Shown: piece after piece, positions 17,579 to 18,841 of the stretch
Layout: every line of letters starts with the position of its first letter
How positions within the stretch are numbered: the first letter of the stretch is position 1
Virus record (IMG/VR): IMGVR_UViG_2529292913_000008
From: a virus
Taxonomy: Duplodnaviria; Heunggongvirae; Uroviricota; Caudoviricetes
Strand: one strand, 5' to 3'
DNA: 64,000 nucleotides
Program-made: the position numbers and the translations under genes
Notes under the pieces: generated by a model
What the model was told of the DNA's origin: nothing
What the model saw: only the letters and a program-made list of their open reading frames with translations
Databases searched by the model: none

Positions 17579-18841
17579 TCAGCGAACGTAAATAGTGCCG
17601 CCGTTCTCTTTTTCCCATGCATCGCTACGTGCATAGCAAACATCGAGAAGTCTTCTTGCCGCAGTTTCCTCTAAACCCAATTCGACAACCAACTGCTCAT
17701 GACGGCGGGTAACCACATCAAACAGGGTATGCAGCCCTTTAGTTGCCAGATCATCAATGAATTCCGGTTCGAACGGCAGCTCTGCATCTGCTAACATAAC
17801 CTCTTGCGCCCACTCAACTCGACGGACCAGTTCCGGGCGGCGGCTTTCCATCTCTTTACAGATCAATTCATGGAAGAACTCTACCCAACCTTCCGGCTGG
17901 AACTCGCGGAAAATTGCCAACGGCTGGAAGTTTGGCATCAACCATTCGTTGATTCGGATATCAATGGCATAGCCCATGTCGCAGCAGAACTGATAAGCAA
18001 AGTCCAGCTTAGAAACGATATAAGGACGCTCGTTATTGAACTCTTTAGGCGATGAGATCCCATAAGCCAGGAGGCGCGGGAAGAAGGAGATTTGCCCTAA
18101 CGTCGGATGAAGTTTGCTTGCAGGGAAACGGCGCTCAGTAATGCCATACATTTCCTTCTTGAGCGTCGCAAATTTGGCATTCTCATTAACCAGCGCGGTA
18201 ACCTCTGCTTTTTATTAGCAAATGCCACGCGCGCTTCGCTTGCATCTTTAATAGTTTTTTTGAGCTGTTGGTTAAGGTCGGCGACCTGCTTACGCAGTTC
18301 CTGTCGCTCGCTTTTAGCTTTGTTATAGCGTTTCTCAAGGTTAAAAGGATCAAGTTTCATGATCTCTTTATATTGAGATTTTAGCGTTGAAATCTGTGAG
18401 TTCCGCAGTTCAACCATCGCGGTCATTTCATTGAGTTTTGTTTCCAGCTCAATGCTTATACGTTCGGCATTATCAGCACGCTGGTTGGCGTCATGCGTCG
18501 CATCGTCGATCGCGTCCTGTTGCTGGCGTTTCAAATGTTCAATTTGCAGCTGAAGCTCTTCAATTTCTTTACCCTTCAGACCGAGATCCAACTGCATATT
18601 TTCAGCTGCATCTACCAGGGAGTTATGGCTATCAGCTTCTGCGTTATAAACATCAATAAGCTGTGCGTGAAGCATCTCCGCTGACTGAACCGCATTATCA
18701 AAAAAAACGTGCTGTGAGGTCATCACAACTAACGCGGCGTTGCGCGGCCCGGATGTTCTGGATAATGGCCGGGATACCGGCATTCAGGACATCAGGGATA
18801 GATACATTTTCGATTGATTGGTTTTGTGCTGAAGTGCTCAT
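17579..18841 (-). pseudogene. Coiled-coil protein gene (~420 aa) with two compensating homopolymer frameshifts
   Basis: ATG at 18841 (MSTSAQNQ...) runs in one frame to a T8/A8 run (18700-18707), continues as the 228-aa ORF frame to an A5/T5 run (18209-18213), then as the 190-aa ORF frame to 17579; protein-like sequence is continuous across both junctions. Confidence 0.45.

Follow-up and report, generated by a model that had tools for sequence, protein, structure and literature searches.

The pmgS gene of this P1-like phage-plasmid lacks one uninterrupted frame of about 420 codons, so it represents its family as a pseudogene or as a mis-assembled copy. We conclude that it has probably been inactivated by two independent one-base length changes of the slippage type in A/T homopolymers: an inherited change from A7 to A8, and a change from T6 to T5 that is a probable miscall in the draft assembly of E. 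coli DEC7C. Thus, what looks like an elegant "compensated double frameshift" is likely a dispensable phage gene with one inherited mutation and one probable assembly error. Below, "the window" means the whole stretch of DNA that was analyzed, 64,000 nucleotides in length.

pmgS and its reading frames in the window

The window is a P1-like phage-plasmid, and the minus strand at 17579-18841 carries a homolog of pmgS (P1 PmgS, P7 ShtB). A frameshift pseudogene of this kind is an ordinary case, and the gene itself is already known. Megablast with window positions 17400-19100 (1701 bp) as the query matched 19 phage and 683 plasmid records at 95 to 99.9% identity, with the gene annotated as pmgS between pmgR and pap; nucleotide identity to P1 and P7 over the query was 99.1 to 99.2%. 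In the P1 reference (AF234172, 82452-83714), pmgS is one coding sequence (CDS) of 1263 bp and 420 aa (AAQ14063.1), annotated with a "putative morphogenetic function" and a coiled coil at residues 75 to 220; the same record places it in a pmgR-pmgS operon under the C1 operators OpmgRa/b. The corresponding CDS of P7 is named shtB (AAQ07558.1). The window gene is colinear with the P1 and P7 annotation, and homologs of pmgR, pap, pmgQ, and ppp flank it (pmgR and pap in Table 1).

A single 420-aa gene is the norm: it is found in P1, P7, plasmid pSvP1_F, E. albertii, and ETEC6335, and two exact wild-type PmgS sequences each occur in at least 1000 contigs by exact-protein look-up. Among 77 P1-like plasmids, pmgS is one of 21 genes whose length matches that in P1 (PMC9603915). 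The indel-free allele of pSvP1_F aligns end to end with PHROG 1660, "PmgS-like head morphogenesis" (residues 1 to 420 against profile positions 1 to 403 of 405; E value, 1.1e-195). Searches of Pfam, NCBIfam, and PDB sequences with PmgS gave only sub-threshold matches, to coiled-coil-type Pfam and NCBIfam models and to PDB chains of keratin, ribosomal protein L29, and a phage neck protein; the C-terminal domain, encoded by ORF 3, had no Pfam hit and belongs to no known family.

Table 1. Features of the window that bear on pmgS and on one-base length changes in homopolymers
Feature	Position in window	Strand	Description
pmgS pseudogene	17579..18841	-	1263 bp as in P1; colinear with P1 CDS pmgS
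ORF 1, 47 aa	18698..18841	-	Genuine PmgS residues 1-47, then premature stop; in GenBank, e.g., EHV87575.1
ORF 2, 228 aa	18097..18783	-	PmgS residues 46-210 (coiled coil) between out-of-frame ends
ORF 3, 190 aa	17579..18151	-	Genuine PmgS residues 231-420, C-terminal domain
Run 1, A8 (T8 on gene strand)	18700..18707		+1 vs A7; gene positions 128-134 in wild type (T7); TGA TAA in frame after codon 47
Run 2, T7 (A7 in gene)	18255..18261		Third pmgS homopolymer, gene positions 574-580; wild type in window; -1 frameshift site elsewhere
Run 3, T5 (A5 on gene strand)	18209..18213		-1 vs T6; gene positions 623-628 in wild type (A6); reading back to frame 0
pmgR, 72 aa	18843..19061	-	Intact; upstream gene of the C1-controlled pmgR-pmgS operon (P1 annotation and ORF list)
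pap, 168 aa	17000..17506	-	Intact; HAD/PNKP-type phosphatase; downstream neighbor; PF25109 in sister loci
c1 repressor run	386-393 (CDS about 321-1173)	+	A8 vs A7 in 14/14 other loci; frameshift at codon 24
Intergenic run	43698-43703		A6 vs A7 in 6/6 other loci; no effect
repL run	51540-51545 (gene about 51223-52068)	-	T6 vs T7 in 11/11 other loci; frameshift in a Lys-codon homopolymer
sit (tape-measure/transglycosylase) run	58868-58872 (gene from 58244)	+	A5 vs A6 in 9/9 other loci; frameshift in a Lys-codon homopolymer

A codon-level alignment of the window gene with P1 pmgS contains nine substitutions and two indels, one T gained and one A lost on the gene strand, so both genes measure 1263 bp. 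Joining frame 0 to frame 1 and back to frame 0 at these indels reproduces PmgS over its whole length, an agreement far beyond chance. The earlier note had described this stretch as one coiled-coil gene of about 420 aa with two homopolymer frameshifts of opposite sign, seen in the ORF list as three overlapping frames. Its coordinates, frames, and A8 and T5 runs all check out against the sequence, and alignment to P1-like homologs bears the reading out: a single 420-aa protein is the rule rather than a set of separate small genes.

The indels had also been called compensating, which holds arithmetically (+1 and -1, 494 bp apart) and fails for translation. Past the first indel, frame 0 continues as ARFF and then meets TGA TAA; since translation ends after residue 47, two codons beyond that indel, the second indel offers no functional compensation. 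The opposite signs of the two indels, and with them the common register of the outer frames, are coincidental and have no bearing on translation. Similarly, of the two ORFs said to have junk-like, Arg-rich ends, only the middle one does: its ends are out of frame, with MPVSRPLSRTSGPRNAALVV at the N terminus and the Arg-rich QRLPRWLMRMPNLRRSRRKC at the C terminus, while the 47-aa ORF ends in authentic PmgS residues (AAQRRVSCDDLTARFF). Gene callers start ORF 2 at an internal ATG to give 208 aa (MTSQHVFF...), deposited as EHV87574.1, "pmgS [E. coli DEC7C]". The exact 190-aa ORF 3 is called wherever an upstream frameshift is present (44 blocks).

Distribution of the A8 and T5 alleles

Wild-type length at the first run is A7, as found in P1, P7, pSvP1_F, E. 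albertii, and ETEC6335, in 131 of 137 fetched loci, and in 672 of 673 plasmids. Among the named relatives, A8 occurs only in ETEC1731 plasmid unnamed6 (NZ_CP122822.1; pig, Belgium), where RefSeq marks QDY29_RS26410 as "frameshifted"; this plasmid is also the one carrier among 673 PLSDB plasmids and the one among 668 matching complete E. coli genomes. ETEC6335, with A7, probably belongs to the same project as ETEC1731, because its accession and locus-tag prefix adjoin those of that strain. In IMG/VR, no contig had A8 and 68 had the wild-type word.

Draft assemblies add many more carriers. The 47-aa product, which is diagnostic of A8, was found by exact-protein look-up in 129 contigs and 146 collection blocks, and the 381-aa product of A8-only copies was found in 112 contigs. 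Carriers of the 47-aa product include DEC7A, EPECa12, AIGD01000003.1 (GCA_000249755.2, taken to be DEC7D), and a Logan contig of SRR12827410, for which the match comes with 20 further similar places. A8 was constant in every member of the near-identical backbone that we examined, namely, the window, ETEC1731, DEC7D, and the Logan SRR12827410 contig. Because so many independent assemblies carry it, A8 is a real allele inherited clonally.

A very close intact allele is that of pSvP1_F (NZ_MN510446.1, WP_000107690.1), which differs from the window over 1701 bp by nothing but the two indels; with A7 and T6 it has a single 420-aa CDS, and we therefore take it to show the ancestral intact pmgS of this backbone. 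ETEC1731 is a close frameshifted relative: like the window, it has a pmgS pseudogene with A8 on a near-identical backbone (99.97 to 99.99% in long aligned blocks); unlike the window, it has T6 at the T5 site and one G-to-A change in pmgS (window position 18487), an IS1203 copy in hsdR, and two rather than three TAEL repeats in hsdS; its c1, repL, and sit are intact.

T5 has a much narrower distribution on this backbone. Every close relative has T6, including ETEC1731, DEC7D, and the Logan SRR12827410 contig (sister loci L148 and L151 among them). T5 was absent from 613 plasmids and from the IMG/VR contigs, 119 of which had T6. The 208-aa ORF, which needs both A8 and T5, was found by exact-protein look-up in one contig only, annotated as E. 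coli DEC7C; the 228-aa form of the same ORF was not on record. Two loci from the DEC7C contig AIGC01000010.1 (GCA_000249735.2), L140 and L149, match the window at 100.000% identity over 6.6 and 20 kb, which identifies the window as the sequence of the DEC7C contig. Within these 20 kb, the T5/T6 site and one substitution set both DEC7D and the Logan contig apart from the window. The earlier treatment of the two indels as a coupled pair is not supported: they have different histories, A8 being lineage-wide and T5 occurring on the A8 background in one assembly only.

The same contraction is also seen elsewhere. A change from T6 to T5 is present on otherwise intact pmgS in lineages that are 1.5 to 2.6% diverged (L142, L145, and L147), and the 247-aa product that T5 gives on other backgrounds occurs in 12 contigs. 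Since the change recurs in independent assemblies, this run is a genuine natural mutation hotspot, and the T5 of DEC7C could be real.

Mutation or miscall at the T5 run

Comparison of the window with ETEC1731 over about 62 kb yielded six one-base indels in homopolymers and six substitutions, each of them a transition. We polarized these with pSvP1_F, ETEC6335, P1, and many fetched loci; loci fetched via exact c1 and repL neighbor proteins were mostly distant relatives rather than DEC7 sisters, and they served as outgroups. The substitutions fall evenly, three on the window (DEC7C) branch and three on the ETEC1731 branch, while the indels do not (5 to 6 versus 0 to 1). Besides T5, indels private to the window alter an intergenic run and break c1, repL, and sit, genes in which all other loci compared have a single different run length (Table 1); ETEC1731, for example, has an intact C1 of 283 aa. 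In established P1 biology, a c1 null allele is implausible in a maintained P1 plasmid, and for this reason the c1 frameshift is probably an error of the DEC7C draft assembly.

DEC7D tells a similar story at another site. Its contig (L151, AIGD01000003.1) has a private T5-to-T4 change at the equivalent of window position 22368, which leaves a called gene with a VRR-NUC domain at 93 instead of 192 aa; pmgR is not called in this contig, and hsdS differs from the window by a 12-bp repeat. The private deletion fits with occasional homopolymer errors in the draft assemblies of DEC7 strains. Taken together, the excess of indels with no excess of substitutions, the implausible c1 null allele, and the different private indel of DEC7D lead us to regard T5 at 18209-18213 as probably a draft-assembly homopolymer miscall rather than a mutation. 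T5 has both marks of a miscall, being private to one assembly that holds other private homopolymer indels, some of them in genes that must be intact; A8 does not.

The sequence of events that we favor would have two steps. First, as the shared allele shows, A7 expanded to A8 a single time, within one sub-lineage of a defective P1-like plasmid of porcine E. coli (DEC7, EPECa12, and ETEC1731), and A8 was then inherited clonally; it brings TGA TAA into frame behind codon 47. From such a copy, re-initiation at an internal ATG could at best yield an N-terminally truncated product of 381 aa. Second, the T6-to-T5 change, private to the DEC7C draft contig, would most probably be a homopolymer-length miscall; the 64 kb contain five or six such private one-base indels, this one included, and c1, repL, and sit also appear broken by them. 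Less likely, T5 arose as a genuine second hit after pmgS was already dead. The DEC7C contig should accordingly not be trusted at homopolymers, and its c1, repL, and sit "frameshifts" are probably artifacts too.

The strongest competing explanation, which we judge rather unlikely, is that both indels are genuine: after A8 killed pmgS, a neutral slippage deletion would have reduced T6 to T5, and the remaining private homopolymer indels would be equally real, products, for instance, of a mismatch-repair-deficient host or of a defective prophage's long storage in the laboratory. T5 does recur naturally in other lineages, pmgS is non-essential, and a gene that is already dead can take a second hit at no cost; likewise, private transitions together with homopolymer indels resemble the spectrum of a mismatch-repair-deficient mutator, although a mutator should raise both classes of change, and only the indels are in excess on the window branch. 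The c1 frameshift is a further difficulty, because, lying at codon 24, it would lift C1 repression of the lytic genes, a state in which a P1 plasmid should not be maintained, and the run is A7 in each of the 14 other loci. The sister plasmid ETEC1731 is already defective, a visibly decaying prophage with IS elements in the S tail-fiber gene and in hsdR and a partial cin, and if the window copy were equally decayed, selection against real frameshifts in repL and sit would be weak. Nonetheless, the private homopolymer deletion of DEC7D is what per-assembly errors would be expected to produce.

We find it very improbable that both pmgS indels are sequencing errors and that the real DNA encodes an intact 420-aa PmgS. 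Both lie in homopolymers, and the assembly does have other private indels of this type, but A8 is shared by ETEC1731, DEC7A, DEC7D, EPECa12, and Logan contigs. In the about 92 kb of ETEC1731 examined, no other phage gene is disrupted by a frameshift, the remaining "frameshifted" entries being an IS421 transposase and a truncated cin remnant. For A8, then, an error is rejected because the allele is shared across independent assemblies.

We attach equally little weight to the idea that the frameshifts are functional, either as a site of recoding (by +1 slippage of the ribosome at UUU_UGA or of transcription at T8/A8) or as a phase-variable switch that tunes PmgS. The idea has some appeal, in that the A8 mRNA would read CGU UUU UUU UGA U and a +1 slip of tRNA-Phe from UUU to UUU would restore the wild-type RFFDNAV, and in that different lineages have pmgS frameshifts at three different A/T runs. 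However, the wild-type length is overwhelmingly the norm at the first run in loci, plasmids, and IMG/VR contigs alike, A8 is confined, in the public records that carry it, to one near-identical backbone, as expected of an inherited allele rather than a frequent switch, and any PmgS rescued by slippage in the window would be lost again at the second indel. The pattern is the one to be expected if a dispensable gene containing three long A/T runs decays neutrally. Among PLSDB plasmids, complete E. coli genomes, and IMG/VR contigs, no conserved frameshift configuration was found, and programmed frameshifting or recoding is rejected on that ground; nor did we see the frequent, reversible variation in run length among close relatives that would mark a phase-variable gene. 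It is similarly doubtful in the extreme that pmgS is a slippage-prone contingency gene of P1-like plasmids, with the runs at gene positions 128-134, 574-580, and 623-628 hit independently and the A8 "shifty stop" restoring wild-type PmgS; if it were, the lineage-wide A8 frameshift would lower expression rather than abolish it.

Finally, that the three ORFs are three real small genes is scarcely credible: the ORFs exist and the first two are annotated as proteins of 47 and 208 aa in the GenBank record of DEC7C, but each boundary between the ORFs falls exactly at one of the two indels, the 208-aa product is limited to one contig, and comparison with homologs, which are single 420-aa genes, rules it out.

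Several other features of the window were seen in the same comparisons. hsdS (12229-13497, plus strand) has three tandem 12-bp units, ACCGCTGAGCTT, at 12787-12822, giving TAEL three times and a protein of 422 aa; in ETEC1731 and DEC7D there are two units and a 418-aa HsdS whose WP_ entry also appears in the annotation of pSvP1_F. This is presumably the classic EcoR124I/EcoR124II (R124/3) switch in spacer length, which alters the recognition sequence; if so, the sister plasmids would differ in restriction specificity. The adjacent hsdR of the EcoR124 family is intact in the window (1058-aa ORF at 13559-16735, plus strand, adjoining pap) and is split by IS1203 in ETEC1731. At the position of hsdR, P1 has pmgT-V, and only a short remnant similar to sequence downstream of R124/3 hsdR is annotated there. 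An IS421 copy (IS4 family, 49213-50583) is inverted relative to ETEC1731; its run at 49430-49436 is G7 in the window (374-aa ORF) and G6 in ETEC1731 (transposase marked "frameshifted"), so the window may hold the intact transposase allele. The 5' part of sit contains a 165-bp direct repeat (58346-58510 and 58643-58807, 92.7% identical, 297 bp apart) that encodes a duplicated N-terminal segment (DLKGERVATVDPVSRSVSALNRTIENSRPDF); the segment is single in ETEC6335 and duplicated in ETEC1731 as well.

Loss of pmgS elsewhere and comparison with known systems

In other P1-like plasmids, pmgS has been frameshifted independently at three A/T runs (L138 to L147, L009, and L080). The first run changes to A8 or A6 (window strand), the second from A7 to A6, and the third from A6 to A5 (gene strand). 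Shortening at the second run (A7 at gene positions 574-580; T6 on the window strand) was found in L138, L139 (CP121349.1), L141, L143, L145, L146, and the IMG/VR contig L009; L145 thus has two deletions in pmgS. Other truncated products in the same protein clusters measure 295, 286, 235, and 171 aa and occur in tens of contigs. In IMG/VR contigs, which were picked regardless of these runs, mutant lengths amount to about 1 to 2% per run.

A CRISPRi screen of P1 found pmgS to be non-essential (PMC10695390), and a table in the same article gives it as non-essential in a deletion survey as well (its reference 73). That pmgS has been lost repeatedly, at three A/T runs, fits these experiments, by which it is dispensable for P1 lytic growth. 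As for the A8 allele, it offers a handy clonal marker for one lineage of P1-like plasmids in porcine and other E. coli (DEC7, EPECa12, and ETEC1731).

The +1 programmed frameshift of prfB, which encodes RF2, takes place at a CUU_UGA shifty stop. By analogy, the UUU_UGA of the A8 allele would allow perfect +1 re-pairing and restore wild-type reading, yet the prfB comparison goes no further than this resemblance, since the A8 site is an unconserved, rare, derived allele. With P1 PmgS and P7 ShtB, the window copy shares its operon position between pmgR and pap, its length of 1263 bp, and a central coiled coil, and differs in carrying A8 (+1) and T5 (-1), with which it cannot encode 420 aa. In its broader pattern, the window resembles the homopolymer pseudogenes and miscalls of draft assemblies, with one-base changes of both signs in A/T runs of 5 to 8 nucleotides, scattered over the sequence and breaking conserved genes. 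Unlike in a purely miscalled sequence, however, one of the two pmgS indels in the window is demonstrably no artifact but is inherited across many assemblies.
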